64,000 nt of DNA from a virus: IMG/VR virus record IMGVR_UViG_3300045988_094674, positions 59,788 through 123,787 of that record. One strand, given 5' to 3'. The notes under the pieces were generated by a model. It saw nothing but the letters and a program-made list of their open reading frames with translations, was not told where the DNA came from and did no database searches. Below, one piece after another: positions 25,381-61,289 of the stretch. The translations under genes and the position numbers were made by a program. The number at the start of each line of letters is the position of its first letter. The first letter of the stretch is position 1.

Positions 25381-28300
25381 TTATCGTTTGTTCAATCTCT
25401 GAACCATCTTGTTTGGAAGCTGTTGTACGATTTGACGAGCCAACGCATCTGTGTCGCCAACGGGGTTATTCACATTCACGTCGCCGATAGTCATACTGAT
25501 ACCGCCAGGATTACGAGACTGTACCATTGTAGCTGTGCTATGCTTTGCCATCTGGTCAGTAAACCACTTATCAGGATTTCCACCCATCTCAAACAGGCGA
25601 GAAGTAATGTCTGCAGGAACAACACCATCACCTGTTTCAAGATACGTATAACGACCGGATTGTGGTTGACGGACAATCAATTCGGAGCCTTGTTCATCGA
25701 CATTGTAAGTGCCGGTATGTTTAACTCCTTTATCACCGACAGCTTTCTTTCCCCAGTTCCAGAACCAGAATTTAGAACCCCACAGTTTATCCCAGAATGA
25801 TTGCTGTTTTTGCTGACCATTCGATACAGAAGAGCTAGAAGAGCTAGAAGAACCAGAAGAATCGGAAGTTTTATTTCCGTTATTAACTGTCGTCTGAACC
25901 GCATTGACAGTAATATTGGTCTTATTTTTCTTCTTTTTTACATCATTTGCCGTATCTTTGGTATTTTTGGACACATCGTCCAGCTGGCTAGTTGTCTTTT
26001 TACCCCAGTTCCAGAACCAAATAGGCCACTCATAAACTTTTTCGGCCAGTGTCTTGGATGTGGTTCCATTTTTCTTATCGTTAGCTCTTCCGATAGTATC
26101 ATGAATAAGAGCAGCGATTGAGAGGACACCACCTGACGAGTTAAAGACAGTAGAAAATAAGGACTTTCCAATCTTTGTCCCAGTATCATCATTACTTTTC
26201 CAGATTTTGTTCAAACCAGCAAAATGATTGACACCCACGCCGAGGCCGGCGAGGACTGCACCAACTATTGGAACAGCAGCCAGCAAACTACTTCCACCAG
26301 CAGCCGCAACAGCTGTACCGCCTGCGCCAGCTACGTTTGCTCCAATAGCTCCGTCAGCCATCAGCTTACTAAGACCAGTTAATCCTGCAGTATTCGTGGC
26401 TGTCATTGCAGGAACACTAGAAAGAGATACACCACCGATCCCAAGTAAGTTTCCAAGCCATCCTAAAATGCCACTTCCACCGCTTGTTCCAGCACCTTTT
26501 CCTCCAAATGCATTCGAGATAATTTTTCCGATATTGCTGATGCCATCAGAGAAAATAGAGGTTAGACTATTAGAAGAACTATTACTGAACAACGATTTTG
26601 CGCCAGATCCAATGGCATCCCATGCGTTTTGAAATACGCCAATGAGTCCGTTCTTAGTTGTAGCAGAGCCAAGCTCCTTCTGTGCGTTAACAACAGCATT
26701 CTTTACGCCATCGGTCATAGAGTTGTTGATAACGCCAGTAATGCCGTTTCCACCGAAAGTGACTTCCGTAGCGTCCGTAATCGTATCAAGGCTATTCGTG
26801 ATAGTCTTTGTAATACTTGTAGAGGAGTTCTTTCCGAAAACTTTCTTAACGGTATTTACAAGGCCAACAAAGCCACCATCTGTATATGTACCTGTCTGCA
26901 GGAAATTATAAACATTGTTCAGCTTTTCAAGAGTACCAATCAAAGACTCAAGATTGCTAATAACAGTCTGAATGCCAGAAATTGTGCCACTGTTTTGCAA
27001 ACTAGCGATAATCTTATTGTGATATCCATCAAGACTACCTGCCATCTGGCCGAGAGTCATTTCTTGAATCTGGGCAGTGTATTGGAGTTTCTTATTATAA
27101 TCGTCCCAACTAGTCCCAATATCTTCCATGACCTCAGACAACTTGTCCTTGAATTCGTTGTACTTTTTGATTTGGTCGTCAATGGCTTTCTCAGCATCTT
27201 CCTTATTCCACTGACGCTGTTTATCATTTAAATCCTGACGAGCAGTGCGCACAGCTTCGGGGTCAGCCTGCCACTCGTAACCATTCTCTGTATACACACG
27301 GCTGGTGCGCTGCTGTTCTGCACGGGCGAGTTCGTCCTGAGCTTTTGCCAATTCAATAGCACGCTCAGTTGCATCATTGTTTTCTTCAAGCGCTTCCTTC
27401 TGTTTGTTCAGAGCTTCAATACGCTTGTCGATAACATCACCCATCACATCGCCCCAAAGTTTGAGGTCGTTGGAATTGTTGGTATTGAACTTTTCAATAA
27501 GAGAGAGGAAAGAATTTAGAATGTCTTTTACATCAGATAGTGCATTCTTGAAGTTATCGATTACAGATTCTACGCCTTCCCAGTGTTTTTTAAGCTTTGT
27601 CGTGACCTGAGCATCAGTTTCCTGAACTTCAAGTAAAGATTCCTGTAAAGCACCATCTAATTCGGCTTGAGCTTCTTCCTTCTGTTGAAGTGCTTCATCT
27701 TCAGTTAAATCCTTATTAGAATTGATTTTAGAAATCTTTCTAGTATACCGAGCCAGAGCCTTTTGGTAAGTAAGAGTCTTTTTCGCCAACTTCTCATATT
27801 CTTCAGGAGTAGGCTCGCGGACATCCTCGATTGCAGCTTCGGCCTGAATACCGATTGGTTTACCCTCGAATTCCTTTGCAAGCTCTTTGAGCTGTTTGAC
27901 GTAATTGTCACGCAAAGTTTTTACATCAAGCTTTGCATTACCATCTTCATCGTAGCCCAACAGGCTAGAGAATTCGTCAGGCAAGGCCATCAAGTTTTGC
28001 ATTGTGTCCTGAGTGAGCTGACCAGTCTCGTTCCACTCGTCCATTGCGTCTTTCAGAGTATTCCAATTAGACTGGTAACGATCAAGAACATCATTAGCAT
28101 TGCTTAAATCAGTTCCAAGACCACTCGCCCAATCAGTCGGTGTTATTTTTCCTTGACTAATATTTTGAGATGCGCTATGATACGCATTGTAGAGAGCATC
28201 AGCTCCTGCGCCGCCCGTTTCCTTTGCAGTATTTGCAAGATCTTCTAACGTTTTAGCTAGAGCATTTTTAAACGCTTCGGTATTCAGATTGATATTTCCG

Positions 28301-30777
28301 TTTTCATCCACAATGTTATTGAGAAGATCAGGGTAATCCTTATACTGAGTAACAAGATTACGAATCGCATCTGTTTGTTTATCGATAGAATCTGCATCAG
28401 CAATACCAAACTGACTATCACCCAACGTTTTGATAACGTCTTTTAACCCAGAAAATGCGGATTTTATAGCATCCGTCTTTTCCTTAGCCTTGTCCATCGC
28501 AGTGCCGTAGCCCTTGATAGCGTCAGTCAACTGCTCAAAAGAGATGGTTTCAGAATCAACACTAGAATTCAACCAGTCGAGAATCTTCTTCATCTCGCCA
28601 GCAGACTTGCCACCATCATTAGCCGCATTTGCTTCCTTGAGTTGTGCCTTAATAAATGTGCGGAATTTGGCTGTATTAAGTTCAAGTTTTCCGTTTTGCT
28701 CCGTCAAACAAGCAGTAAACTTGTCATCGACACCAATCAGTGACTTCATTGTATCAGCACAGATATAACCATATTGGTTATATTCTTTCATGGCCTTTGT
28801 TAAGGTATCAAAAGCAGAAGCAATATCAGTCACAGACTTCGCAGTAGACTTGTTGTTCTTGCTGGCCTTATTTGTCGGGAACCCATTCAACTGATTTGTT
28901 AATGCTCGCCCACCCTTTAAAGCGGCATTCATATTGGTGTACAGCAAAGAAAGCTGAGTATTTGTGCGAGTCGTGATTTCCTCTAGTTTTGCAGGATCTA
29001 CGCCGCGTTCGCCGGCCTTCTCTACTTCGTTTGCAAACTCCTGAGCTGCACTGTATGTCGCAGTAGCCGCAGTAGCATTTTTCAAAGCAGGAAGAAGATT
29101 TTCCAGAGCAGTCTTTTCAGCCTCTGTTTTCTCTTTTAAATCATCAGTGCTTTCAGCCGTGTCATCTGCAGTAAGGTTTGCGACCTCATGTTGTGCGTTA
29201 GAAAGAATTGTGGCGGCAGCTTCTGCGTATTCAGCAGCAAGTAACTCGGCATAACTCTGTTTATTTATCTGGAGCTTACCATTAACAAGCTCAAGGCAAT
29301 TCAGATATTCGGTGTTCATCGTCAGTAAAGACTGAAGAGAATCAAGACTCATGTAACCATACTGATTGTACTCTTCCATTGCACTGGTAGAAGCTTTATA
29401 CGCAGACTGGATTTCATCCATTTTGGAAGAAATATCTTCCATCTTCTGTGCGCCAGCAGCCAATGCGTCAACACCATTTGCAGAAGACTGAGCTACAATA
29501 CCAACTTGAACAAGTGCTTGGATAAACGCATTCACACCGTTTGTGTCAGCAGAGAAGTCCATGTCGGTCAGAGCTTTGCGAAGATTTGCAAGGGCTTGAG
29601 CTTGCTCGTCGGATAATCCTTCGTTTGTACCCCACAAGAGTTCATTCAGCTTACTTGCATCAAATCCATCAATCGTATCTTCCAGAGTTTGAACAGCAGA
29701 ATTTACCTTATCGAAAGTAAAACTGACATCCATACTGTTATTATTGTCATTCTGCCAAAAATCAACTGCTTGAAGTTTTCTACGAGCGTTTGTATTGTTG
29801 TTGATAGCATCCGTTGAGTCGTTGTAAGAATCTACATCATCACGGAGAGCAGATTGTTCATCAAGCAAGAATTGATACAGACTATGATACGTTCCACCGG
29901 CAGCTCGTTCAGCCTCAGTTGTGTTATCAATGATATATTTTAATGCTTTGCCAACTTCGTTGTAATAATCAACAATTGAATCCGCATCATTTAACTTGTC
30001 AGGTCCATAACCACCGAACTTGTTAAAGACATCAATGCCAGCATTTTTAATCTGGTCTCCCATATCCATTTCAGGAGCCGACCAAACAGTAAGATAATGC
30101 GTCCGATTATTCTTCTTGGCTGTATCAACAAGCTTATCGCCTTGAGCATCTTTGTTCTGTGTCAACTCATAACGAGATGCCTCTAACTGCTCCGCTGTAA
30201 TATCCTGAAGTAATCCAAGCTGCTCTTCATACTTGCCATTTTGAAGGTCAAGTTTACCAAGTTTATTTTCATCAAGCGTTCTTTGTTCTTTCGCAAGATC
30301 AAGAATCTCTGCCTGAATGTCTTTTGCTTGATCAAAGTCCTCTGTATCCCAACCAGACTTGTCGCCAAGTTCTTCATAAGCACTGACCAAATCCTTTAAA
30401 GAGGAAGTGGTGCTCTGTGCAGCATCGGCGGCTTCCTTGGATTTCGTTGCGACATTTTGCACTCGTTGTGCCGCTTCCGTAATCTTCTTAGTGCCCCAAG
30501 AGACAAGCAGGCCAATTCCAACACCCAGCGCGGCATTGAGCAGTAAAGCTTCAGCTCTTAACGCAATCATTTTCAACCGCGTTCCTTCAAGTTCAAGTTT
30601 AGCTTGACCTGATAACATCCATTTGATAAAATCAGAAATAGAAAGATTAGTTTCGCCAGGAATACTCTTGTAAGCTTTATATTTTTCAATTAAAGCAACT
30701 AACGAAGTACCTACTTGGTTAAAAGCACTTATCTGTAATTCTTTTTCTTTGGAGTCAACCGTAAAGAAAGTTAATAT
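25381..30777 (-). CDS. tail tape measure protein, exon 2 (proposed)
   Basis: Track ORF 25381-30618 (1745 aa). Its frame stays open upstream to about 30850 with protein-like sequence and no start or SD. Proposed 3' splice site after G at 30778. Confidence 0.65.
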   Translation of the reverse strand: MLTFFTVDSKEKELQISAFNQVGTSLVALIEKYKAYKSIPGETNLSISDFIKWMLSGQAKLELEGTRLKMIALRAEALLLNAALGVGIGLLVSWGTKKITEAAQRVQNVATKSKEAADAAQSTTSSLKDLVSAYEELGDKSGWDTEDFDQAKDIQAEILDLAKEQRTLDENKLGKLDLQNGKYEEQLGLLQDITAEQLEASRYELTQNKDAQGDKLVDTAKKNNRTHYLTVWSAPEMDMGDQIKNAGIDVFNKFGGYGPDKLNDADSIVDYYNEVGKALKYIIDNTTEAERAAGGTYHSLYQFLLDEQSALRDDVDSYNDSTDAINNNTNARRKLQAVDFWQNDNNNSMDVSFTFDKVNSAVQTLEDTIDGFDASKLNELLWGTNEGLSDEQAQALANLRKALTDMDFSADTNGVNAFIQALVQVGIVAQSSANGVDALAAGAQKMEDISSKMDEIQSAYKASTSAMEEYNQYGYMSLDSLQSLLTMNTEYLNCLELVNGKLQINKQSYAELLAAEYAEAAATILSNAQHEVANLTADDTAESTDDLKEKTEAEKTALENLLPALKNATAATATYSAAQEFANEVEKAGERGVDPAKLEEITTRTNTQLSLLYTNMNAALKGGRALTNQLNGFPTNKASKNNKSTAKSVTDIASAFDTLTKAMKEYNQYGYICADTMKSLIGVDDKFTACLTEQNGKLELNTAKFRTFIKAQLKEANAANDGGKSAGEMKKILDWLNSSVDSETISFEQLTDAIKGYGTAMDKAKEKTDAIKSAFSGLKDVIKTLGDSQFGIADADSIDKQTDAIRNLVTQYKDYPDLLNNIVDENGNINLNTEAFKNALAKTLEDLANTAKETGGAGADALYNAYHSASQNISQGKITPTDWASGLGTDLSNANDVLDRYQSNWNTLKDAMDEWNETGQLTQDTMQNLMALPDEFSSLLGYDEDGNAKLDVKTLRDNYVKQLKELAKEFEGKPIGIQAEAAIEDVREPTPEEYEKLAKKTLTYQKALARYTRKISKINSNKDLTEDEALQQKEEAQAELDGALQESLLEVQETDAQVTTKLKKHWEGVESVIDNFKNALSDVKDILNSFLSLIEKFNTNNSNDLKLWGDVMGDVIDKRIEALNKQKEALEENNDATERAIELAKAQDELARAEQQRTSRVYTENGYEWQADPEAVRTARQDLNDKQRQWNKEDAEKAIDDQIKKYNEFKDKLSEVMEDIGTSWDDYNKKLQYTAQIQEMTLGQMAGSLDGYHNKIIASLQNSGTISGIQTVISNLESLIGTLEKLNNVYNFLQTGTYTDGGFVGLVNTVKKVFGKNSSTSITKTITNSLDTITDATEVTFGGNGITGVINNSMTDGVKNAVVNAQKELGSATTKNGLIGVFQNAWDAIGSGAKSLFSNSSSNSLTSIFSDGISNIGKIISNAFGGKGAGTSGGSGILGWLGNLLGIGGVSLSSVPAMTATNTAGLTGLSKLMADGAIGANVAGAGGTAVAAAGGSSLLAAVPIVGAVLAGLGVGVNHFAGLNKIWKSNDDTGTKIGKSLFSTVFNSSGGVLSIAALIHDTIGRANDKKNGTTSKTLAEKVYEWPIWFWNWGKKTTSQLDDVSKNTKDTANDVKKKKNKTNITVNAVQTTVNNGNKTSDSSGSSSSSSSSVSNGQQKQQSFWDKLWGSKFWFWNWGKKAVGDKGVKHTGTYNVDEQGSELIVRQPQSGRYTYLETGDGVVPADITSRLFEMGGNPDKWFTDQMAKHSTATMVQSRNPGGISMTIGDVNVNNPVGDTDALARQIVQQLPNKMVQRLNKR

Positions 30778-30801
30778 CGATTTCGAGGAGATGTGAAATC
30801 T

Positions 30802-31215
30802 ATGGAAAAATATGTACGGTATTGTCCATTTTGCGATAAATACTATTCAAGATGGGACTTATTATGTGCTTTTTGTATTCGAGACAATATTTTGCTTATA
30901 GAATGGAACGAAATGACAAAAAAACAAAAAGAAGAATGGAAAAATAAAACTAAGCCAAGGAGAAGTATTTCTGAAATAAATCCAGATACTCTCAAAAAAC
31001 TTCAAAAGAATGCCAATACTTTCGATTCCCAATATAGAGCAGAACTGGAAGAAAAGGAACATCCTAAATACACCCCAAAATGCCCTACATGCGGCTCGCC
31101 AGACCTAGAAAAGATCGGAACCGCTTCTAAAGTCTTGGATGTTGCTTTCTGGGGATTTGCCAGTGGAAAAGTGAAGAAAACTTTCCATTGTAAGAATTGT
31201 GGATATGAGTGGTGA
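30802..31215 (+). CDS. double zinc-ribbon protein (intron cargo, antisense to the TMP)
   Basis: ATG at 30802 after GAGGAG. CPFC...CAFC at the N-terminus and CPTCGS...CKNCGYEW at the C-terminus. Confidence 0.5.
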   Translation: MEKYVRYCPFCDKYYSRWDLLCAFCIRDNILLIEWNEMTKKQKEEWKNKTKPRRSISEINPDTLKKLQKNANTFDSQYRAELEEKEHPKYTPKCPTCGSPDLEKIGTASKVLDVAFWGFASGKVKKTFHCKNCGYEW

Positions 31216-31266
31216 TAAAAGAAAAGCCCTACTACACAAAGTAGCAGGGTAGTGGTCGTATTCGTT

Positions 31267-31872
31267 TTAGCGTAGAACGTATTTCGCAGTTTCGGAATCC
31301 AGATTGTCGTACATGAACTCGAATCGTTTTACGTGAGACATTGGGACACATAAAGCTGTATCATCATTTAAATGAGAAACAGCTTCATCCATCTTATCTC
31401 CGTTCCGATCAGTTGCTGTGGCATGGTAAGTCAAAACGATATAGTCATTATCGGCGTTTTCGATTGTGCCATAAATATAGGTTCCATCGTCCATATGAAG
31501 CATCACATCGGTTTGCCCACTAAAATCGATATGGCGAGTCCAAATATTGTCGCCAGTATCGTAGCCGAGATGATTACTAAACCACTTTCTTACCGGAATA
31601 GAGTTTTTGATTTTGTAAAACAAGGAAGAGCATACAATGCCAGTTACAATATAAACAATAACGATAGGAAAACCCTTGATAGTGAATCTTCCAAGTAAAT
31701 GGTCAGCGTAATCAACGATATACTTGATAGTAAATCCAAAAGCAATACTTAATGAAAGAAACCCTTGGTATTCAATTTTCTTTAAAGAAAGCTTTGTGTA
31801 AAACCAAACACAAAGAGCTCCTGGAACAAATACATTGAATAGTGTTTCGACATTATTTACTAGTTCCTTCAT
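31267..31872 (-). CDS. three-TM membrane protein with a soluble beta-rich C-terminal domain (intron cargo)
   Basis: ATG at 31872 after GGAGGG. Three hydrophobic helices, then DVMLHMDDGTYIYGTIENADNDYIVLTYH (Sm/SH3-like look, resembles DUF6338-type proteins; tentative). Confidence 0.5.
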   Translation of the reverse strand: MKELVNNVETLFNVFVPGALCVWFYTKLSLKKIEYQGFLSLSIAFGFTIKYIVDYADHLLGRFTIKGFPIVIVYIVTGIVCSSLFYKIKNSIPVRKWFSNHLGYDTGDNIWTRHIDFSGQTDVMLHMDDGTYIYGTIENADNDYIVLTYHATATDRNGDKMDEAVSHLNDDTALCVPMSHVKRFEFMYDNLDSETAKYVLR

Positions 31873-32047
31873 TCGACCCTCCATTCCCTCGTTGTTTATC
31901 GCGGTTTCTAAGATAAGAGCCGCCATGTGTTTTTACCGAATCTGTACCGGAATAAGTATAAGTATTCCTTGGAGACTGACGTTCTTGAGTCGGTGCCCCA
32001 TACGTAGAGATTTCATAATTCGGCACATGCTTTTTATTGTTTTCCAT
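31853..32047 (-). CDS. small hypothetical protein (intron cargo)
   Basis: Track ORF of 64 aa. AAGGAG lies 9 nt before the ATG. Low-complexity polar sequence. Overlaps the next start. Confidence 0.25.
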   Translation of the reverse strand: MENNKKHVPNYEISTYGAPTQERQSPRNTYTYSGTDSVKTHGGSYLRNRDKQRGNGGSNEGTSK

Positions 32048-32104
32048 GGTTCAACACTCCTTTTACAAGAGTGTATCACAGACTGTCGTAAAAAGCAACG
32101 CAAA

Positions 32105-32150
32105 TTAAAACGCCCGGCCTCCCAGTAGTAGGGAAGTCGGGCTTATTTTA
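32105..32150. terminator. strong bidirectional stem-loop terminator inside the intron
   Basis: GCCCGGCCTCCC (32112-32123) pairs with GGGAAGTCGGGC (32131-32142). An A-run lies on one side and a T-rich run on the other. Confidence 0.55.
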
Positions 32151-32167
32151 TGATGACTGCGCCGTTG

Positions 32168-32500
32168 TTATTTCAGAAGTTCAGCGATTTCTTCAGCAGT
32201 CATACCATTTGCCAGTGCGTTAGCAACGATATCTTCTGCCTTTTTACGATTCAGCTCTGCGGCAATCTTTTCATCGGCATCAGCCTTTTTCTTTTCGAGC
32301 TTTACAATCTCTTTATTGATTTTCTTCAATTCAGCTTCCTTAGCTTTTTTATCAGCATTCAGTGCAGCAATATTGGTGCCGAGTGCTGTGATTTCTTCAG
32401 CAAGAGATTCTGCGGCAGTATTCTTTTCAGCAATCTGTGCTGCGTAATCAATACCATCAAGAACCTTTGCTTTATTCTTACTTCCCTTGGGTCTAGCCAT
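32168..32500 (-). CDS. small coiled-coil protein with a basic N-terminus (intron cargo)
   Basis: ACGGAGGTG plus ATG at 32500. Sequence MARPKGSKNKAK..., then an Ala/Lys/Glu coiled coil. No nuclease motif. Confidence 0.5.
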   Translation of the reverse strand: MARPKGSKNKAKVLDGIDYAAQIAEKNTAAESLAEEITALGTNIAALNADKKAKEAELKKINKEIVKLEKKKADADEKIAAELNRKKAEDIVANALANGMTAEEIAELLK

Positions 32501-33021
32501 AATAAAACACCTCCGTATATTTTGGATACGCGATTGTAATATTATTATAGCCAGAATATCGTATGTAGTCAACGAATATTTTGTTTTCTCCTATTTTGTA
32601 TCGCGCCAGAGAGTAGCGCGTCTCCTCATTTCCACCTACTTCTTTAAGTCGTCTGGTTACGTCTGAGGTGGACTTCTGAACTTTCGCCCAGAACTGACTA
32701 TCCTTCCAGTGGTTGCTCACTGACCCTTTTTAGTCGATGAACCTTCCACCTTCCTACATTATATAATAGGGGAGTGGATCGGCTGCTGACCGCCCATTGT
32801 AAACGCTACTTAGCACTCGATTATTACCATATTTTGGCAATACGATAAAACCGAGCTTTTATCTCAGCATATAGCATCCATATCCTTGTTTCTATCTTTC
32901 GATTCCTACATTATATAAATATAACAATAGGCGATATGGCTCTTAGGGTTTCCCAGCACTCTAGGGGCTATTTTATTTTTACATGGTGCCGCATCCTATA
33001 TTTTTATACGCAACAAATATA

Positions 33022-35451
33022 AGAGGGCATATTAACTTTACCCGCACCATTTTTGAGCTTTCCGCTCATCTGCATTACAGACAACACGCCGGAAATGGCG
33101 GCTGTCAGAGTTGGTAATGCGCCAGCAAATTTTACAGCACTATCTGCACCGTCAACAAAAACAGTAGCAAGGCTTATAAAGAACTTCGGGATATCAGACT
33201 TCATCAAGTCCGTACTAAACTTCTGGAATGCAGAATCAAGCTGATTAAGCTTCGCCTGCAAGGAGTCCATGTACGTCTGGTTCTCACGCATTGCGCTGCC
33301 ACTAGAATTGAGTGCCTGCTTCATAGCGTCTTCAGCAACACTAAAATTATTCAGCAGGGCAGATGTACTCTGACCTCCTCTCTTTCCAGAGATCAGCTCA
33401 GTAATATTTGCCTGTGTTGTGTCAGACAGATCTTTCCAAACCTCAGAAAGTTCCTTCATAATCTGATAGGTTGATTTGAAGGTATTATTATCCTTCATAA
33501 TATCAACACCAGCAAGTTGCTTCAACTCAGATCGAAGTTCGGACACAGAATCTGCCATCCCATCTGTTGCGATACCGGCATTTTCTGCATCTGTTTTTGA
33601 AGCACGAAGGTACATACTCAAAGTTTTTAGGTAAGTGCCACTCGTATCTGCGTCCTGAAGTACACCGTTTACAGCAGACGCCAAACTAAGCGTCTCCTGA
33701 TATGTATTTCCGGCGGCAGACATCGCAGCGGAACTTTTCTGCATGATAATTCCAAGGTCGTTCATACTGACTGGTTCAGTATTAGCGATTTGGTTCATGC
33801 AGTCCAGAAGACGCTCTGCATCATCAGCAACCAACCCAAAACCTTGCATTGCAGAAATCAGGTAAGAAGAAGCAGTTGTTGCATTATCTATCTGGTCTCC
33901 AACATTAGCCATAAGAGCAGACACACGAGCAAGCTCTTCAGAGTCTTTGTCCGTATATCCAAGTCGCTTCTAATCGGCAGTGCTACTTACAAGATCAGAA
34001 ATATTAGCACCAAGATTACGAGCGTTTGTTGCAGTTCTATCGAGATATTCGTTCATCTCGTCGTCAGTCATTTTACTGACTTTTTTAAGCTCTGTTACAG
34101 CCGTATCAAGTTCCAGAACATTATTATAAACCTCTCGCAGACCTTGTTTGACCATAGCCACGCCAGCCATAGCAATAGCTGTCTGGAAGTGCTCCTTAAA
34201 CAGACGAGACAGTTTTTGACCAAGAGTTTCTGTAGTGGCCCCACATCTGCTGGCCTCAACCTCAAGATTTGATAGTCTTGCACTAAGATCAGTAACATTG
34301 CCTTCACAGCCAGCAGCAGAAGCTTTTATTCCGTTTAAACTATCAATTAGCCAAGAATATTTACTTTTATTTGCAATAGAGTCTTCTAACTTCGTTGCAC
34401 GTTCATAAACACTCTTAAACTTCGTCATATCAACATTGGCTTGATTTATATCTCTAAAATCAAATCCAAGTTCTTTTAAATGTTGACTTGTAGAATCAAT
34501 AGTTGTATCAAGAGTCTTGCATTTTTTATCAAAGTCTTGAATTGCTTTCCCTGGTGTAGTGTTCTCAATAGAAGCAAGCTGATCTCGTAACTCTTTTAAC
34601 TTTCCAGAAGTTTTTCCAGTTCCATCTTCTCCATATAAATATTTTTTGATATTATCATTTTTATAGTTGGAGTTATTCTTAGAATAGTTTTCAAGAGACT
34701 GAATCTTTTTTTGATATTTTTCATACTCGGATTCTTGAGATATGAGAGTCTTTTTTAAATCATCTGCAATTTCTTGATTTTGTTTTTTTAGTTCTTTTGC
34801 AGCCGAATCAGCACCTTTTGCAGTATTCCTGTCAGCATTGAATTTTCCGGTTTTTTCGATATCCTCAAGCTTTAACTTCTGAGTTTCCGTAATTACATCT
34901 TTTGTTTTTGTCTTGAGTTTATCCATCTCATCGTTGATTGCGCTCAATCTAGTCTGTACCGCTTTCAACTCAGATGATTTGTTTCCATTAGCAATTAACA
35001 ATGCTTCATCCGCTTTTAACTTTGCTTGACGATTTGCAAGGCTGAAAAGGCGAGAAATATCACTTTTTGAAGTATCTTGCGGTTTTGCAGAACCAGACTT
35101 TCCGGTATCAACCTTAACTGTCTGCTTTGCTGCAGATTGCATAGCTTTTTTAAGCTGTGCGGTTACTTTACTCTGGTCAACCTTAACATCAAGTGTAACC
35201 TTTGGAGTTCTTAATTTTCCACTCTTGACCACCTTGTCAAGTGCGTCATTTATATTGCGGATTGTATCGTTTTGATTCACTCCGAAAGCAATTTTTACTG
35301 GTTTTTCTTTATAATACTCTTTAACAGAATTAAATTGCTTGTCTAACTCTGCTTTATTTGCGTCAATAACAACCTTAACCTTGATAGCTGTTACAGAGGA
35401 AGTATCAGCACTACTTGCGGTGTTTGTATTATCCGCCATACCGTTGGTCAC
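33022..35451 (-). CDS. tail tape measure protein, exon 1 (proposed), with one in-frame TAG
   Basis: Track ORFs 33970-35451 and 33004-33924 share a frame and are joined by TAG at 33970-33972. The region ...ALMANVGDQIDNATTASSYLISAMQGFGL... resembles the TP901-type TMP core. Start is GTG at 35451 or ATG at 35439. Confidence 0.65.
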
Positions 35452-36137: not shown

Positions 36138-37127
36138 TCAAATCTCAAACCGATCCTTTGCAGACTGAATCTTTGTCGTATCCTTTTTGATGTAATACTT
36201 GTTGGTCACATCCGTGCCAGCATGGTTGAGCAGGGAAGAGACATCTTCCAGACTCATACCCGCATTCTTCAGCAGAGTAGCACCACTATGCCGAAAATCG
36301 TGCGGATGCAGCGTAGGCTCATCAATCATCTCACCAATCTTCTTACACCAATCACCGGCAGTGCTTGAAGTAATCGGCATCCATGCGTCATTGATTTTCG
36401 CACCAACAAACACATAGCCGCCATCCTCAATATCATGCTCAGTACGATATTCCTTCAGCTCTTTTAAAAGCTCAGAAACCTCCTTGCTGAACATCAAATC
36501 AACGATTTTGCCTTCCTTTTCCAGAACGTCATGTACCATGCGGTTCTCATAATCGATAGACTTCCAGAGTGTATTTCGCACAGCGTTAACACGAGCCATC
36601 GTGGACAGCGAGAATAGAGCATACAGCCGCAACGTCATCGCATTATCCTTCATGTGAATAGTGGTCGCAGATTCAACCAACACATTCAGTTTTTCTCGCA
36701 TCAGTTTAACCTCATCCGGCGTAAGGTATGTCTGCTTCACGACAGCCACGTCCTTAGTCGGTCGGTCAATGAACTCCATCGGATTCTCTTTGATGATTTT
36801 CTTCTTGCGAAGATACCGATACAGTGCAGAAATCGTGCTCATACGTCGCTTCATACGAGCAGAGTTATTTCCATGCTTCTTACAGTAGAACAGAAATTCC
36901 TCAATATCCTCTTCTTCAAGTTCTGTCACAGGGGCATTTCCCTGATTGTCCAGAACATAAATCATCCACTGCTTGAAATCCGATTCATAATTGTAAACAG
37001 TAGACGGGCTGAGATCACGGATGCCCATATCAGTCTCATATCTATCCCAGTATTTTAAAGACACTGGGTTTACGTTCTTGAACTTCTCAGCATCCCATAA
37101 CTTCAGCGGTTTACTTCTTGTAGCCAT
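36138..37127 (-). CDS. XerC/D-like tyrosine recombinase (second recombinase in the window)
   Basis: N-terminal SAM-like domain (...STISALYRYLRKKKIIKENP). Catalytic HDFRHSGATLL and LLNHAGTDVTNKYYIK. Confidence 0.8.
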   Translation of the reverse strand: MATRSKPLKLWDAEKFKNVNPVSLKYWDRYETDMGIRDLSPSTVYNYESDFKQWMIYVLDNQGNAPVTELEEEDIEEFLFYCKKHGNNSARMKRRMSTISALYRYLRKKKIIKENPMEFIDRPTKDVAVVKQTYLTPDEVKLMREKLNVLVESATTIHMKDNAMTLRLYALFSLSTMARVNAVRNTLWKSIDYENRMVHDVLEKEGKIVDLMFSKEVSELLKELKEYRTEHDIEDGGYVFVGAKINDAWMPITSSTAGDWCKKIGEMIDEPTLHPHDFRHSGATLLKNAGMSLEDVSSLLNHAGTDVTNKYYIKKDTTKIQSAKDRFEI

Positions 37128-43118: not shown

Positions 43119-44703
43119 CCAAAATTTTTAAGAAAAATGTTTATCTAAAATATTTTCTACATTATCAAAATCTGTGTAGGGAATTCTGATAAGTTTGATT
43201 CCATTACGATTACAATATTCTGTTTTTAAAGAATCTTTCTTTTGCTGACTTTTATATGTACTAATAGAGTCGGATTCGGTTACACTCTTGCTAAACCTAA
43301 CAGGCATAAAATGTTGTTGCCCGTCGTATTCAATGCAAGTATTTTTTGATGGTATATAGAAATCAAAAGGAAGCTGCCGTTCATTTTTACAATCTTTAAA
43401 ACTGTATTCTCGTATGTAATCAATGCCATAACTATCGAGATAATTGCATACTTTTTCTTCACCATGAGAAGAACAACACTTTGGACATCCATGCCCGCCA
43501 AGAACTGAATTGACAGCTGTTGACCATTTGTAACCACATTTCTTACATTTAAAATTTGCATGAGATAATATATTTTTATATCCGCTCAAATACTCAACAC
43601 TTGGAGAAACCGTTCTTAGTCGTTCTATCATTTCAGACTCTAAAATATGTGCTCTCCCAGCACATTTTGGACAACCAGAATTTTTATTATTAAGTATCGT
43701 ATCAGGAATTGCGGTCCAATGGTAACCGCAAACATCACATGCAAAATCCACTTTCACAGCAACACGGACATATTTTGAAAGAACATGAATAGTAGGAAAT
43801 CGTTCACGCATTTCTTTTAAGAATTCATCTTCCGTTCGTCTGTTTGCAATCCGTCGATAACATTCTGGACACCCATGTCCATCAAGCAATGTATGAGATA
43901 TGCCATTCCACTCATACCCATCAAGTTTACAACGACAATGCACTCTCGCATTGTTTGTTGTGTATTCAGATAACAACTCAATATTAGGATTTACTTCAAA
44001 CAGCTCCGTGGAAAATTGTATTGGCGACTTTCTTTTTTCTGCTCCACGCTTAGAGGCAACACATGCTTGACACCCACGATTATCAAGCAACATTCTTGCC
44101 TGTACTTCACGTACATCCCCGCATACTTTACATTTCCTGGTAATCTTTTTTCGAAGACCATTATATTCGGATAAAATTTCAAAATTTGGGTTTACATCAA
44201 ACACTTCTTTTTTGAAGTCTTCTGTCGTTCTCATTGGTGTCATCCATGCCACCTCCTTTCTTGCAAAATAAAAGCCAGATACTCTACACAGCATCTGGTC
44301 AAATCAAAATATTAGATAAACATTATATCGGACGCTACTCCGCTCTTGTTGCATCTAGCAACCTCGTACTCTCATACGAGTGAAGACTATATCTTCACCC
44401 AGTAAAACTGGGGCACACCACTTCGGATGCCAAACACTTGCATCCTAACCGCTCCCACGCGGATAGTCGTTGGACCTTCTCCTTTTCGGAGCTTGGCTGC
44501 TGATTGCCCATTATTTCAGCGTTTAGGATTTAACCTTGCGCCATCTACAATTTTCTTTCTACTTTCATAACCACCCATCTAGGCATATTTCATCCTTCTG
44601 TTTTGGTAATTGTAGTTTTAGGGTTTTCCAGCAATTCAATGTGTATTTGTTATCGTGACTTACATCACGACTGGACTATATTACGTAAATTTACATAAAT
44701 TTA
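43119..44703 (-). mobile_element. group I intron in the major capsid gene (1585 nt, with HEG)
   Basis: Minus-strand core elements: P AATTGCTGGAAAACCC (44621-44636), Q AATCAGCAGCC (44495-44505), R GGTCCAACGACTATCC (44461-44476), S AAGATATAGTC (44385-44395). P/Q and R/S are complementary. The exon ends in U and the intron ends in G. Confidence 0.7.
43128..44243 (-). CDS. intron-encoded homing endonuclease candidate: four zinc ribbons plus a Vsr/PD-(D/E)XK-like nuclease domain
   Basis: AAGGAGGTG plus ATG at 44243. Four C-x2-C...GC-x2-C repeats (for example KCKKCGYKWSTAVNSVLGGHGCPKCC). C-terminal LPFDFYIPSKNTCIEYDGQQH...GIKLIRIPY. Confidence 0.65.
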   Translation of the reverse strand: MTPMRTTEDFKKEVFDVNPNFEILSEYNGLRKKITRKCKVCGDVREVQARMLLDNRGCQACVASKRGAEKRKSPIQFSTELFEVNPNIELLSEYTTNNARVHCRCKLDGYEWNGISHTLLDGHGCPECYRRIANRRTEDEFLKEMRERFPTIHVLSKYVRVAVKVDFACDVCGYHWTAIPDTILNNKNSGCPKCAGRAHILESEMIERLRTVSPSVEYLSGYKNILSHANFKCKKCGYKWSTAVNSVLGGHGCPKCCSSHGEEKVCNYLDSYGIDYIREYSFKDCKNERQLPFDFYIPSKNTCIEYDGQQHFMPVRFSKSVTESDSISTYKSQQKKDSLKTEYCNRNGIKLIRIPYTDFDNVENILDKHFS

Positions 44704-45525
44704 ATCCGGGATCAGCAGGGAACCATCACCCAGCTTCTTAGCAGAGCTAATACCAGTGATAGCAACACCATCGTAAGTCTTGACCAGGCCATAACGGTTG
44801 AACTCATCCTTAGCTGCATCAGACAGATACTCAGCGTAACCGGTCATACGACGCATCTTAGCACAATACTTCATCAGGCTGACAGTGAAGGGGTTACCAC
44901 CATCGGCGTACTCATTCAGATACAGAGCCAGAGCGTCCATGTCCTGCATAGTGGGCTCCTTACCCTGTACATCGATCTTCTGCTCGCCACCAGTGATAGC
45001 GTCATCAACCATGCTGAAGATGTCATAGAACATCTGGTTCTTCAGAGCCTCAGTCATAAAGGTGGTCAGAGTTGCCACACTCTTCCAAGCATTACGTCTT
45101 ACTTCCACAAAGCTAAGATCAGCCTCAATCTGCTTATTACGCCAGACGGGCTTAATGGTCTCGTAGTGCAGGTAAGACTTCGGCACGTTGCCACCCTTAG
45201 CTGCATCATAAGCCTTCAGAGTATTTTTAACAGTACGACCTGCCTCGTAGTCATCAAACTCACCAACATTACCACGCTCAAACATGGAGTCCAGAAGCTC
45301 GTCAGGTGCGCCATACAGCTCATCAGTCACGGTGCGATTAACAAACTGAGCAATTTCCTTATTGGGATCGCCCTTGTCAATCAGCTCCTCAACATGAGCG
45401 CCAACAACCTCTGCAATTTCCTTGTCCTCGGCATCCATAGCGCGATTGTACTGAGTCTTCTCAGCAACTTCATAAACACGACCAGGCTGCTTCATCAGCT
45501 CGGCCACTTCAATATTCAGTGCCAT
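44704..45525 (-). CDS. major capsid protein, exon 1 (proposed)
   Basis: Track ORF 44701-45525 (274 aa) downstream of the scaffold/protease gene, with G/C-richer codon usage. The TAA at 44701 is read as intronic. Confidence 0.7.
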
Positions 45526-52912: not shown

Positions 52913-52987
52913 TGGCACGCCCACTCCGAATCCAACAGAGATAAGTGAGTTTAGAGCTCACCGTCTTAGGCATTAAACGATAGGCGC
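52913..52987 (-). tRNA. suppressor tRNA, anticodon CUA (reads UAG)
   Basis: 75-nt cloverleaf: GCGCCTA-TC-GTTT-AATGCCTA-AGAC-G-GTGAG-CTCTAAA-CTCAC-TTAT-CTCTG-TTGGATT-CGGAG-TGGGCGT-G-CCA. Anticodon loop is C-U-CUA-A-A. Confidence 0.75.
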
Positions 52988-57772: not shown

Positions 57773-58522
57773 TCATAAATCAAACATTTTTCTATTTTGT
57801 GCAGTTTTCTCAATATTTACGTTTTTAGCGCACTTACGGCAGTATTTTTGTCTGCGTCCGGTGCGAGCAACCATCTTTCCGCAACAATCACACTTGATGT
57901 ATTCTTTCCCACAATACTGACTCCACAGAATACCAGCATTCTCAAAATCGTCCACAAAAATCTCATGAGGAGAATCCGGTTCAGCAATCAAAACATGGAT
58001 ATTCAAGTTGTCGATTTTTTTCAAGCTGGCAAACCCGATAAAACCAAGATTATGTAACTCGCAAATCATCTCGTTCTGTTTTTTCTCATTCACAGACACG
58101 TTTGCCATCCTGAAAATATCAGCCGTATCTTCCGTAATCCAGTAGTTGCATTTTTCATTAACAGCAATATGGTATTTCGCCAGACACAGCATCGTGAACA
58201 TCAGGCGTTGCATCTGCTTGCCTTCAAGTGCTTGAACCTTCTCTACTTCAGCCTTCGTAATGCACACACCATCAAGTTCTACCATAGGACGACCTTTAGC
58301 AGAAGCAATCGCTTTATCAATCAGTTCTCTATCCAGAACCTTATTGTACCCTTCAAAATGACGCAGCATATACTCGTTAAGTTTTTCTCTTACGTCATCC
58401 TTTGAGTACCCTTTATAGAAATAATACTTCGCTACATAATGCAAAACATGCCCCGCCTTCTTCCAAGGCACATCTTTCTCTAACCATTCTTCAGCGTAAA
58501 GAACTTCATTCAATACAATCAT
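57773..58522 (-). CDS. hypothetical protein with a C-terminal zinc ribbon
   Basis: Second ATG after AGGAGG. C-terminal CDCCGK...YCRKCAKN. Confidence 0.5.
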   Translation of the reverse strand: MIVLNEVLYAEEWLEKDVPWKKAGHVLHYVAKYYFYKGYSKDDVREKLNEYMLRHFEGYNKVLDRELIDKAIASAKGRPMVELDGVCITKAEVEKVQALEGKQMQRLMFTMLCLAKYHIAVNEKCNYWITEDTADIFRMANVSVNEKKQNEMICELHNLGFIGFASLKKIDNLNIHVLIAEPDSPHEIFVDDFENAGILWSQYCGKEYIKCDCCGKMVARTGRRQKYCRKCAKNVNIEKTAQNRKMFDL

Positions 58523-61289
58523 CCGCATCCTCCTTACTATTCATGTCAACCAACACATCCTTGAAACGCTTACCATCATATTCAATATTGCCATTCTCAT
58601 CCTGCACAAGAGAATGGACCATACCGCCACGGCGTTCCAATAAGCGTTTAATCAAAGTATCGTGAAACAGTTCCCAGACTATTGCAATGCTGGATGAATT
58701 CTTCTTACAAAGATCAAGCATGATGTCGCAAAGTACATCGTCATTAGAACACTTGTCATGAAGATTGCGGAACATACTTTCCTGATACAACGCAATGCGC
58801 TCCTTGCGATCTGCGCCGGTTTCTTTATTATTGTTTCCGTTGCCAGAATGGATTGCATTACCACGAGCAAACCTCAAATAATCCTTAAAAATAGAGCGGA
58901 TACCATAGTATTGAGAATTGGTGTACTCAACGCCAGACTTGAGCGAGTCGTAATCAAACTTGCGCCTTATCTTGAGTTCTTCTTCAAAATCTTCCAGCTC
59001 GTCCTCAACAGTCCAGCACAGGCGGTTCATGGTACAAGAATTGATTCCGACCGGCATCCGATAGAGGTAATACTGGATAACCATTTCATCCACATCGTCC
59101 TTGACGGTCTTTTGCATAATCTCATCCAGACCGGCAAACCCATCCCACTTAATGCGCTTACGAGCTGCGGCCACATACTGCTTGTAATCGCGCATTTGAG
59201 CAGGGTAGATGTAGCTCATAAAGTATGGCTTACGCCATGCGCAAATACTACTCCAGAACTTCTTATCCTCGATAGTATCAGGATTATCATCGTCTTTAAC
59301 GACGCAAGCTTTATTGTCGTACCAGTATTGCGGCATATCTGTCGTGGCTACGCCTTTTATTTTGTCAATCGCGTTCTGTTGATAAAGCTGTCCGCAGATA
59401 ATGCGATACGTAAGTTCATCGTACTCTTTACTACCTTGCTCAAATTTGCTTCGCACATCAAACATCGTTGTAATTCGGTTTGTTGTACGTCCAATATTAT
59501 CTCCAAATCCGCTGATATTAGATTCAATAAAATCCTTCTCGGTCGGAACTTTTTTATCGCATTTTCGCTGGACACAAAGAACAACGGGTTCATTTTCCCA
59601 TTTATCAATAAGAATTCTATTATCTGTAGAAAACGTAAGGTCGGCATCGAAATCTTCACCGTTAAGCGCTGCACACATATTATCCCACGCATTAGTGATA
59701 AACACGGACTTCATATAGCGATACCAGTATTGGCAATCCTCAGATGCATTCAAATTCATGCACCGAATATTTGCCATCTGACTCATAGGAGCTCTAAAAC
59801 AAGCAACCCTCTTGACGTCTCTATCATTCCAAAAACGACTGTAAACCTCACCAGCCTTCAATAGTCCAGTTACCTCCATCCGAAACATAGACTGGCAAAG
59901 CGCATATGGATCGCCACTCGCAACTTGAAAATTCCCTCGTACCTTTACAACACCCGTTTTTGCCTGAGAGATTCGCTTTTTAATAAAGTATCGAATCCGA
60001 TTCTGCACATAAGGGTCGTTAATCATTTCCGGCTCAATCATAAGAGCCTTAATATAGTCGTTTTCCAGACTGTTTATGTAATTCGGTTCATCACGCATTC
60101 CACTACCACGCAAATACAGCAACGCATCACGCCAGTCACCACCCATGACACCCTTGATTTCATCCAAAGTTGGCTTCACGAGTTCATGAATCTCATTGTT
60201 CGTAAGCTGGTAACTCTGGATAAACTGATAATTCAGATTGCGCTCCTCATCAAGCTCCAACTCACAAGTCTTGGTTACAGAGAAGTGATAGTGATTCTCT
60301 CTACAGTTTTCAAGATAGTCCTCACAACTATGGTAACTATCCCACAGCTTTAACATAGAGGTACTAAGAACGACCTGAATTCTATTGATGTCGCGATAAT
60401 CTCCCCATGCGTCCTTTAACATATTCTGTTTTGCTACCTTCTTAGCGAACTCACGAAAAGGGAAGGGGAATAACATACCTTTGCAGAACGCATTTCGCAC
60501 ACAGAAGCCAGACGCAGTGGATGGAAGTTTCAGATCCTCACTCCACTGTTGTGCAAGATCATAACTAATAAGTCCAAACCCATCATTCGCACACAGCTCA
60601 CAATCGTGTTCTTTATCTTCAACTATCGTAGGTTCTCCAGATACTCCGTCATCCAGAATAACAACATGGTCTTTAAAATGCGTATAACAATCATCTATAA
60701 CAAGTACACCATCAGGGTCAGTGACCGGAATAGAAGCAGAGCAAGCAAGGGCTCTATAAGCCTCTAACTTTGCAGGCACAAATTCCATACCCTTGTTACG
60801 GCCATTATCGATTCGCTTGCGGATCTCGTCAACAAGACGGTCACTCACAAACACAATCGTACTATTCTTAACGCCACCGGTGGTTCCAACCAAACGACGA
60901 TACGTGATTCCATTGATTTTAAACCCCTTTTGAGAACATGCCCGGCGGTAATCATTCTTCTTGTCAACCACCAGACACATATAATCCGGCTTAAACTGAA
61001 CTGCGTCCAGCTCAGTGTATAATCTCCGAATTTCCCGGCGGTTCTCTAAGCAAGAGGGTTCATTCCGTAGCATCTTAATTCTACGCTTGATACTCCGTGC
61101 TTTAGCCTCTGCATCCGTAACACCATTCAACTCATCAATCCATCGTAGAACAGTGCTATCAGCCAACGAGATAATCTCGTGATTTCGTCTGGCTTCATCT
61201 AATGGTAGGGTTAAATCCCATTTTGCTTCAACCAGACGCTTCGTATGGATCTTAAAAACAAACTTCTGGCAAGTTTGCTGCTTTGCCAT
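58506..61289 (-). CDS. YonO-like single-subunit RNA polymerase candidate (two-barrel, RdRP-related)
   Basis: 927 aa. ...VACFRAPMSQMANI... is followed about 45 aa later by NGEDFDADLTF (DFDAD at 59640-59654). This matches the D-b-D-x-D metal-binding loop layout of YonO and cellular RdRP-type enzymes. Confidence 0.5.
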   Translation of the reverse strand: MAKQQTCQKFVFKIHTKRLVEAKWDLTLPLDEARRNHEIISLADSTVLRWIDELNGVTDAEAKARSIKRRIKMLRNEPSCLENRREIRRLYTELDAVQFKPDYMCLVVDKKNDYRRACSQKGFKINGITYRRLVGTTGGVKNSTIVFVSDRLVDEIRKRIDNGRNKGMEFVPAKLEAYRALACSASIPVTDPDGVLVIDDCYTHFKDHVVILDDGVSGEPTIVEDKEHDCELCANDGFGLISYDLAQQWSEDLKLPSTASGFCVRNAFCKGMLFPFPFREFAKKVAKQNMLKDAWGDYRDINRIQVVLSTSMLKLWDSYHSCEDYLENCRENHYHFSVTKTCELELDEERNLNYQFIQSYQLTNNEIHELVKPTLDEIKGVMGGDWRDALLYLRGSGMRDEPNYINSLENDYIKALMIEPEMINDPYVQNRIRYFIKKRISQAKTGVVKVRGNFQVASGDPYALCQSMFRMEVTGLLKAGEVYSRFWNDRDVKRVACFRAPMSQMANIRCMNLNASEDCQYWYRYMKSVFITNAWDNMCAALNGEDFDADLTFSTDNRILIDKWENEPVVLCVQRKCDKKVPTEKDFIESNISGFGDNIGRTTNRITTMFDVRSKFEQGSKEYDELTYRIICGQLYQQNAIDKIKGVATTDMPQYWYDNKACVVKDDDNPDTIEDKKFWSSICAWRKPYFMSYIYPAQMRDYKQYVAAARKRIKWDGFAGLDEIMQKTVKDDVDEMVIQYYLYRMPVGINSCTMNRLCWTVEDELEDFEEELKIRRKFDYDSLKSGVEYTNSQYYGIRSIFKDYLRFARGNAIHSGNGNNNKETGADRKERIALYQESMFRNLHDKCSNDDVLCDIMLDLCKKNSSSIAIVWELFHDTLIKRLLERRGGMVHSLVQDENGNIEYDGKRFKDVLVDMNSKEDADDCIE

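Follow-up and report, generated by a model that had tools for sequence, protein, structure and literature searches.

The window analysed here is a stretch of 64,000 nucleotides (nt) of viral DNA (IMG/VR record IMGVR_UViG_3300045988_094674, positions 59,788 to 123,787), in which the gene of the tape-measure protein (TMP) is interrupted by a proposed group I intron of 2,244 nt (33021-30778). Coordinates are those of the window and refer to the minus strand unless a plus is given. The first part of the gene, exon 1 (33022..35451), is an open reading frame (ORF) opening with GTG at 35451, with a likely start at ATG 35439 (MADNTN..., as in relatives); it carries a TP901-type core domain and ends ...GKVNMPSYICCV before TAA at 33004-33006. 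Hundreds of exon 1 relatives, 98% identical and with PF10145, end in the same ...GKVNMPSYICCV. The second part, exon 2 (25381..30777; 1,798 codons plus stop), begins ATATTAACTTTC (ILTF) and encodes a protein of the same TMP family. Its frame is open from 30846 and reads ...SKS followed by ILTFFTVDSKEKELQISAFNQVG at 30777 (across the 3' boundary, ...SSKS-ILTFFTVDSKEKELQ...); no start codon lies at the boundary, the earliest ATG being at 30618, and the upstream sequence holds no purine-rich Shine-Dalgarno (SD) sequence. The insert is located just past the conserved TP901 core and the first hydrophobic segment.

Read unspliced, exon 1 gives an 810-aa product ending in YICCV. Joining 33022 to 30777 gives a single frame of 2,609 codons, including one in-frame TAG and the stop, with the predicted protein junction ...KVNMPS-ILTFFTVDSK... 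(predicted tryptic junction peptide VNMPSILTFFTVDSK), the predicted joined-exon sequence GTTAATATGCCCTCTATATTAACTTTC at the insertion site and the predicted spliced RNA junction GGTAAAGTTAATATGCCCTCT-ATATTAACTTTCTTTACGG (33042-33022 plus 30777-30759). A first-pass annotation of the window had described a TMP frame that stops at TAA 33004 and resumes 2.2 kb further on without start or SD, and had noted that the frame is kept on joining (810 + 1799 codons); both descriptions are borne out.

The ribozyme core with its 3' peripheral hairpins occupies 32602..32968. P1 consists of 9 bp: its 5' strand (33016..33024) is made up of the exon end UCU and the intron start UAUAUU, with the 5' splice site between 33022 and 33021, and pairs with the internal guide sequence AAUAUAGGA (32994..33002), leaving a U.G pair at the splice site as first modelled. 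P3 is formed by 32968-32963 with 32727-32723, the 3' strand of which (GGG) lies between the strands of P7; P4 by 32958-32953 with 32789-32784 (UGCUGG/UCAGCA); P5 by 32948-32946 with 32795-32793, with a long extension at 32942-32799; P6 by 32783-32781 with 32743-32741, with P6a/b at 32777-32746; and P7 by 32735-32731 with 32700-32696 (GACUA/UAGUC). The remaining hairpins are P8 (32722-32707), P9 with a GAAA loop (32693-32674), P9.1 (32672-32631) and P9.2 (32620-32602). The P/Q and R/S complementarities recognised at first pass are thus P4 and P7, and its P8- and P9-like hairpins are likewise present. The catalytic elements (P1-P9, plus P9.1 and P9.2) all fall within the first ~420 nt of the intron. 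A guessed 'P5c' helix was dropped, its strands being unpaired.

The fold was compared across relatives, designated by L numbers, which comprise 77 loci from a tblastn-confirmed scan of IMG/VR and L081-L089 from contig look-ups of more distant TMPs. The hand-built P1-P9.2 structure, P3/P7 pseudoknot included, was derived from one of the compared sequences, and for that reason the count of compensatory pairs is the robust measure. In 44 distinct close variants, 99.3% of cells are paired and substitutions are nearly all pairing-preserving, with full compensatory changes in P1 and P9.2; P1 itself is 100% paired, with U.G in 44/44 and a compensatory A-U to G-C change in L004. In a diverged set (n = 8; window, L082, L084, L086, L087, L004, L002, and L013), 97.1% of cells are paired over 68 proposed pairs, and 17/68 pairs have changed on both sides, against 6.6 +/- 1.8 in shuffles, of which 0/500 reach the observed number. 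Control structures with partners slid by 1-3 columns have just 35-46% of cells paired. Covariation is seen in P1, P3, P5a, P8 (four of five pairs changed), P9, P9.1, and P9.2, while P4, P5, P6, and P7 are invariant and hence uninformative. Pair-preserving and compensatory evolution indicates that the core is selected as a folded RNA, and the site very probably holds a group I-type structured RNA.

At gathering thresholds, Rfam finds in the window only the intron of the capsid gene (43128-44704), with an RF00028 core at 44363-44704 (77.9 bits) followed by a 388-aa ORF (43128-44294) that contains repeated treble-clef zinc fingers (DUF4379, CapR, DUF723). A local scan of 2.9 kb aligned 33026-32675 over all 253 positions of RF00028 with 22.7 bits (E 0.0067), and no other family had E <0.3. 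The relatives score in the same range (L084 22.9 bits, three others 26.7-28.2 bits, local E 0.002-0.009). A ~145-nt P5 extension and an atypical P2 region penalise the full-length alignment. The RF00028 search that had been named as a check of the core therefore fell short, at 22.7 against 50 bits, and support comes from covariation instead. The Rfam alignment uses another P1 (UUAUAU/GUAUAA, splice after 33017); this was discarded, as it breaks the frame and the covarying pairing is a different one.

Both splice sites are marked, where the first reading had placed them, in every relative examined, by a U paired with G at the 5' end and a G before exon 2 at the 3' end. In the window this terminal G is 30778, directly before exon 2, which places the 3' splice site at 30778/30777. 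The positions of both exons were established in 67 IMG/VR loci, which represent 60 distinct inserts of 1,862-5,881 nt. Across these 67 loci exon 1 ends AATATGCCCTCT (insert after ...CCCTCT), the exceptions being one TTT and one intron that begins TAC. The insert ends in G in 60/60 distinct inserts, in 31/31 distinct 3' junction sequences, and also in L082, L084, and L086. Exon 2 always starts [AG]TATT[AT][AT]CTTT in phase 0 (encoding ILTFF, VLTFF, ILSFM, ILTLF, etc.), with no conserved start codon among the 60 distinct inserts, and the boundaries are constant despite exon 2 proteins that are only 33-97% identical. A 3' splice site just past P9 or P9.2 was rejected: the downstream frames there are not TMP, and the conserved G followed by [AG]TATT lies 1.8 kb further on.

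The same boundary is found further afield. In distant phages, whose TMP core is 50-71% identical, the frame runs on into the same intron, as shown by the ending ...GKVNMP[SAFV]Y.. of the protein. In P1 of L082 a U-A pair is replaced by C-G, a compensatory change, and L081, with a different intron sequence, forms P1 from exon CU and intron AUUCUG with CAGAGUGG and keeps the U.G on the same exon base. L085 (TMP 47% identical), which is interrupted at the same place and has A as exon end, was left out, and L087 and L088 stop before exon 2. Identity among relatives is locally raised at both edges: it is 83-97% over the last 30 nt of exon 1, with neighbouring bins mostly at ~35-70%, and 73-93% over the first 15 nt of exon 2, where the following 150 nt are mostly at 33-67%. 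The exon 2 start AUAUUA pairs with the guide as (A)UAU/AUA. Of the P10 helix proposed earlier, the pairing with the guide is weak and amounts to ~3 bp with a one-base offset, and the reasons for the conservation of the exon 2 start are not separable.

The joined junction region was also compared with 1.8 billion cluster representatives. It aligns in one uninterrupted HMMER stretch, across position 304/305, with many proteins of 2,000-3,000 aa, among them P0173 (query 5-546), P0186 (2-570), and P0191 (1-583), and their order is TP901 core, first hydrophobic segment, variable linker, second hydrophobic segment, and a coiled coil with an LDLVNGK motif. The comparison with uninterrupted TMPs suggested at first pass shows that the two halves are one protein in more distant phages.

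From this anatomy and evolution we infer splicing, and we put the probability that the whole 2,244 nt is removed in cis to yield one TMP at roughly 0.7. It is very unlikely, in our estimate, that no productive splicing takes place and that the gene yields an 810-aa N-terminal part ending in YICCV and a C-terminal part started internally (eg, at ATG 30618), the ribozyme being a relic or having some other role such as RNA processing. That alternative would account for the absence of a spliced product from the databases searched, for gene callers that annotate two proteins everywhere, and for the RF00028 score under threshold. It does not fit a core under selection as folded RNA, nor a pre-ATG region of exon 2 that is conserved as protein (SxS[DN]FIK[WY]) and has the same first codon in all lineages without a conserved start or SD; the invariance of the terminal G and of the U.G pair and the existence of uninterrupted homologues also argue against it.

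The part of the insert downstream of the core holds the genes that had been listed at first pass, and that inventory (coiled coil, terminator, three-TM protein, antisense double zinc-ribbon) needs no revision. A sigma-70-type promoter, TTGACT-17-TATAAT (32544..32572; 11/12 matches), precedes a sense-strand cassette with the gene of a basic coiled-coil protein of 110 aa (32168..32499; MARPKGSK...); at the matching position L082 has TTGACA, a 17-nt spacer, and TATAAT. This gene (cluster C3) is present in 60/60 IMG/VR variants and missing from the minimal introns of L084 and L086. It is followed by a hairpin terminator (32112..32142; -22.1 kcal/mol, z -3.1) of bidirectional type with A-tract and U-tract flanks, a small ORF of 64 aa (31853..32047; MENNKKH..., cluster C7, 39 loci) without a family match, and a gene for a membrane protein of 219 aa (31267..31926), read as three hydrophobic segments (cluster C5, 47/60 loci). 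A second terminator (31227..31249; -15.3 kcal/mol, z -4.0) separates the latter from the convergent, antisense double zinc-ribbon gene of 137 aa (30802..31215, plus strand), the start codon of which is 24 nt from the 3' splice site. The sole match of the region in the GenBank phage collection is one of 145 bp (32101-32245, 86% identical) to the human faecal phage fragment MT837120.1, spanning the end of the coiled-coil gene and the terminator.

The ORFs of the window intron have no match above cut-off in Pfam or NCBIfam and none in PHROGs. Homing endonuclease domains (LAGLIDADG, GIY-YIG, HNH, His-Cys box, PD-(D/E)xK, EDxHD) were found neither in these ORFs by Pfam, PHROGs, and NCBIfam nor, by Pfam, in six cargo proteins of relatives. 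The description of the cargo as free of endonucleases accordingly agrees with the lack of a nuclease match in the intron ORFs, but it is not assertable for the zinc-ribbon protein.

The antisense zinc-ribbon gene (cluster C0) occurs in 60/60 variants and in the minimal introns as well; being present even in an intron of ~970 nt, it is the constant ORF of the intron. In every distinct junction its SD and start codon lie on the opposite strand within ~35 nt or less of the 3' splice site. The family has 167 unannotated database homologues (E <= 0.001) with invariant CPxC...CxFC and CPxC...CxxC; a conserved constellation of acidic or histidine residues is absent from these homologues, in which nearly all invariant residues are ribbon cysteines. 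An AlphaFold2 model (predicted local distance difference test 79) has no significant match in the PDB (best Foldseek E 0.34), and the Foldseek matches obtained were discarded as generic zinc ribbons. A sigma-70 promoter for the gene at the conserved exon 2 start (TAATAT, plus strand) is not supported by a conserved -35 element. The only candidate, TTGACC-17-TAAAAT with an upstream TG (30604-30632, plus strand), lies antisense within exon 2, ~170 nt upstream of the zinc-ribbon gene, and could be its promoter.

A gene with this constancy raises the possibility of an actively mobile homing intron, in which the antisense zinc-ribbon protein would be a homing or maintenance factor and the conserved exon islands would be co-conversion tracts or a recognition site. 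It is the sole ORF found in every version, identity rises sharply in the exon sequence on either side of the insertion site, TMPs that are just 50-70% identical carry an insert at the same position, and a bottom-strand endonuclease ORF is known from the capsid intron of mycobacteriophage LittleE (PMC3706429). We nevertheless regard such a homing intron as unlikely. Neither a nuclease motif nor a nuclease fold could be recognised in the protein, its invariant residues being almost all those of the ribbons; an empty site was not found among close relatives, and nothing therefore points to a recent gain or loss; and the exon islands could also result from P1 pairing together with protein constraint.

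Other passengers of the intron come and go. The insert of L084 (~970 nt) consists of the core (~400 nt), one hairpin, and an antisense zinc-ribbon gene of 155 aa, followed by CUCCUCACAAAACG and, across the junction, AUAUUAAC; L086 has the same gene layout and again the 3' junction CUCCUC...G before AUAUUAAC. The comparison of cargo variants proposed at the outset thus did turn up introns of ~970 nt without the sense-strand cassettes, in L084 and L086. Cargo in other relatives includes two kinds of Panacea (SocA-like antitoxin) genes, each with a partner, DUF3800, a retropepsin-like aspartyl protease, and extra zinc-ribbon copies; the source introns are L001, L002, L008, L022, L048, and L052, with up to three tandem zinc-ribbon genes.

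In addition, modules of ~400-520 nt with a small antisense hydrophobic ORF (~30-37 aa) are found at intron positions 230-660 and 790-1360 of L017 and 405-980 of L004, and at 4250-4400 of L081. One module type lies inside the P6 loop and another after P9.2; those after P9.2 have a perfect sense-strand TTGACA-17-TATAAT promoter facing the antisense hydrophobic ORF, and from their sequence these modules look like type I toxin-antitoxin systems. In the two inserted segments inspected (L017, L004), the extra DNA sits at structurally tolerant spots, in the P6 extension or just after P9.2: the P6 insert (~400 nt) replaces the P6a/b hairpin, L017 keeping the P6 stem and gaining a new closing stem CUUCU/AGAAG, and a block of ~520 nt is placed directly past P9.2.

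The sense-strand genes of the window intron are thus add-on cassettes with their own promoters and terminators that differ among relatives. As in morons, they have a promoter of their own (32572-32544) and terminators, their content is mosaic over the 60 variants, and L084 and L086 lack them; the 3' extension of the intron together with the P6 loop is a hot spot where moron-like cassettes accumulate and are exchanged. Because cassette content varies while the zinc-ribbon gene is constant, no fixed multi-gene cassette is transported by the intron, and the earlier proposal of such transport gives way to one constant zinc-ribbon gene with independent, variable sense-strand genes. What stands of the original reading as a group I intron is a core that folds and evolves as one and two marked splice sites, whereas the Rfam score is low and the cargo is not one cassette.

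A tentative extension, which we hold to be on the improbable side, is that the intron is a dedicated gene harbour, a host-polymerase-driven island that is expressed in the prophage, exchanged between phages, and spliced out, in its strongest form in trans. Such an island might hold, on either strand, modules of toxin-antitoxin type along with genes for Panacea, DUF3800, membrane, and zinc-ribbon proteins. The zinc-ribbon protein might then be a new kind of intron partner that conceivably takes part in homing or RNA folding, or that regulates splicing or the synthesis of the tape-measure protein.

The internal terminator had been called puzzling at first pass. It becomes less so given that the window encodes a YonO-like two-barrel RNA polymerase of 927 aa (58506..61289; Pfam PF05183, E 7.4e-15). 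The YonO of SPbeta transcribes structural and lysis genes together, as a single operon, and it is described as being without most of the conserved domains of multisubunit RNA polymerases, one of which, the flap, is discussed as needed for hairpin-dependent pausing and termination (PMC5467207). It is plausible that the polymerase of the window, acting late, ignores the hairpins that end cassette transcripts of the host polymerase, and that internal terminators are tolerable because of it, which would do away with most of the puzzle.

Near the 3' splice site, UCUCCUC (30785..30791) is the complement of the SD of the zinc-ribbon gene and also of GAGGAGA (32621..32627), which lies single-stranded in the P9.1/P9.2 linker and is invariant in the 44 close variants. 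At least CUCCUC is found 7-16 nt before the terminal G in 30/31 distinct junctions (L045 has CUCCUU). L087 is without the GAGGAGA motif, but its 3' end was not recovered. Comparison of the flanking bases across variants gave no consistent pattern of covariation. A long-range helix between the two motifs near the 3' splice site is a conjecture from this complementarity.

The same region bears on whether the exons might be joined from two RNAs, that is, whether exon 1 and the ribozyme form one RNA that ends at the hairpins and exon 2, preceded by the end of the intron, a separate RNA, the two meeting for instance by GAGGAGA/UCUCCUC pairing, with group I chemistry joining them in trans. Such an arrangement would suit the terminator-like hairpin found directly after P9.2 even in the minimal intron of L084, the two sense-strand terminators and convergent gene of the window intron, and the position of the catalytic elements, all upstream of the break with only a short tail with the terminal G downstream. 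We consider it highly improbable: a search of the minus strand at 31227-30778 found no promoter from which exon 2 could be transcribed, a contact of 7-8 bp is weak for association, and the YonO-like polymerase is a simpler way through the terminators. We know of no trans-spliced example from a phage.

In the favoured explanation, splicing in cis, the span from P9.2 to the last ~25 nt would be dispensable for the ribozyme and would be a place where genes can settle. Of these passengers, the oldest and the only constant one would be the opposite-strand double zinc-ribbon gene, the ribosome-binding site of which abuts the 3' splice site; three sense-strand genes (coiled coil, small ORF, membrane protein) would have been added here with a host-type promoter and hairpin terminators. 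Late in infection the phage YonO-like RNA polymerase would transcribe the entire tail operon through the terminators. The intron would then fold, guanosine would attack after U33022, and exon 1 would be ligated to A30777, with GAGGAGA (32627-32621) and UCUCCUC (30791-30785) perhaps pairing so as to carry the terminal G to the core; the predicted outcome is one tape-measure protein of 2,607 aa. Host RNA polymerase could express the cassettes alone, for example in a lysogen, without tape-measure protein.

Several observations weigh against this explanation. The RF00028 match is under half of the gathering score (50 bits). On the way from the core to the 3' splice site a transcript meets two sense-strand terminators and a convergent gene, and read-through by the YonO-like polymerase is deduced from domain content. 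Some 1.8 kb separate P9.2 from the terminal G, with no closing helix demonstrated; the GAGGAGA/UCUCCUC pairing shows no covariation and can be accounted for by the SD of the antisense gene as well, and P10, at about 3 bp, is weak. No empty or intron-less allele was found in IMG/VR, JGI metagenome contigs, GTDB genomes, or a collection of 5.8 billion proteins, all 67 IMG/VR loci with both exons located carrying an insert. A junction-centred peptide searched against the 5.8 billion proteins gave no spliced product, only exon 1 fragments and artefacts. Lastly, the junction falls in a poorly conserved linker, so that the homologues support continuity and not the exact residue.

Single candidates for a joined product were discarded. 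P0284 is a protein that reads through into the intron, and P0286 is an assembly chimera of an EF-Tu N-terminus with the last 40 residues of TMP exon 1, joined via GKTTLTAAI. At the DNA level, exact and degenerate joined-exon patterns had zero matches in IMG/VR and GTDB genomes, and three matches in JGI metagenomes are chance occurrences in unrelated AT-rich bacterial DNA.

The TMP gene and its surroundings show some further peculiarities. The in-frame TAG of exon 1 (33970-33972) corresponds to W in 8/8 relatives read (STADWKRLGY). The window has a tRNA with anticodon CUA (52913-52987), TAG is the terminator of just 3/39 long minus-strand ORFs, and other possible read-through TAGs are at 21085, 21604, and 15159-15582. 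This suggests that TAG is suppressed or partially recoded in the window, and the amino acid inserted may be W rather than Q. In some relatives of exon 1, such as P0081, an unrelated N-terminal segment of ~95 aa (MAKAYEVTPDMISKL...) is fused in frame to TMP at ...FSKISEIERATT, and the variable N-terminal portion of the gene may thus contain another insertion or intron. A tyrosine recombinase (36138-37127; Phage_integrase, E 1.4e-20) is encoded among the tail genes just upstream of TMP, an odd site for an integrase, and a 329-aa homologue in L084 and L086 is likewise among the tail genes, a few genes upstream of TMP.

Structural genes of the relatives match Pfam families named after SPbeta (YomU tube, YomW, YonB, YonD), which identifies the virus as an SPbeta-like gut phage. 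The pattern of the exon 1-intron boundary also occurs in two contigs of Faecalibacterium metagenome-assembled genomes, L090 and L091, of 47 kb and 197 kb, respectively. The host is therefore likely to be Faecalibacterium, with the phage present as a prophage, and the finding fits a temperate phage, with cassettes possibly expressed in the lysogen.

The intron is fixed in a very common SPbeta-like phage family of what appears to be human-gut Faecalibacterium, where its load of other genes, of which some bear toxin-antitoxin or defence signatures, ranges from 0.5 kb to over 5 kb and includes no recognisable nuclease. If it is spliced as we propose, introns would offer neutral insertion sites for accessory genes inside essential genes. 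This would be a new way for phage genomes to become mosaic and to conceal genes expressed in the lysogen within a late operon. Routine annotation would mis-split TMP in hundreds of public genomes, every close relative recovered being called as two proteins. The system would also be a natural case of a ribozyme that reaches a 3' splice site 0.5-5.5 kb away, past terminators and a convergent gene, and of the behaviour of a YonO-type polymerase at such terminators. The main interest lies in the idea of the intron as a harbour for genes and in the unexplained, universally linked zinc-ribbon gene.

Group I introns of phages are as a rule small, with no more than a single homing endonuclease gene. 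In T4 nrdD/sunY-type introns the ORF lies 3' of a complete core. The capsid intron of the window and the TMP intron are alike in this respect, with a full core first, then a gene-bearing 3' extension, then the 3' splice site, and the likeness in layout between the two that had been remarked on at first pass, core first and a long 3' ORF after, is confirmed. Common to the T4 nrdD-type, capsid, and TMP introns are a U.G pair in P1, the P3/P7 pseudoknot, a GNRA-capped P9, and a terminal G. The TMP intron differs from the others in an opposite-strand ORF without nuclease signature, in its independent cassettes, and in a size of up to 5.9 kb in relatives. A non-endonuclease gene housed in a group I intron is known from rps3 in fungal mitochondrial rnl. 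The TMP intron resembles that case in having such a gene, but rps3 is one sense-strand housekeeping gene in an organelle, in contrast to variable, bidirectional cassettes in a virus.

SPbeta-like prophages reportedly carry morons and type I toxin-antitoxin modules, for example yonT/SR6, with their own promoter and terminator among late genes transcribed by YonO. Such morons are like the intron cassettes in being small and self-promoted, and introns of relatives have antisense hydrophobic ORFs and convergent promoters; known morons, however, sit between genes, whereas the intron cassettes are inside the interruption of an essential gene and must leave the mRNA. Cluster J mycobacteriophages have group I introns in virion genes (LittleE capsid; BAKA and Optimus tail gene) that are spliced in late expression, the LittleE intron with a single bottom-strand LAGLIDADG-like ORF and the BAKA intron without an endonuclease (PMC3706429). 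They share with the TMP intron the location in late structural genes of siphophages and, in LittleE, a bottom-strand ORF, but the BAKA/Optimus insertion is 265 bp, none of these introns is in the tape-measure gene, and accessory cassettes are not described (PMC3706429). A full-text literature search returned no description of an intron like the present one, which is weak negative evidence. Compared with the known introns, what differs here is an antisense ORF without nuclease signature, promoter- and terminator-bearing cassettes in both orientations, and a length of up to 5.9 kb.

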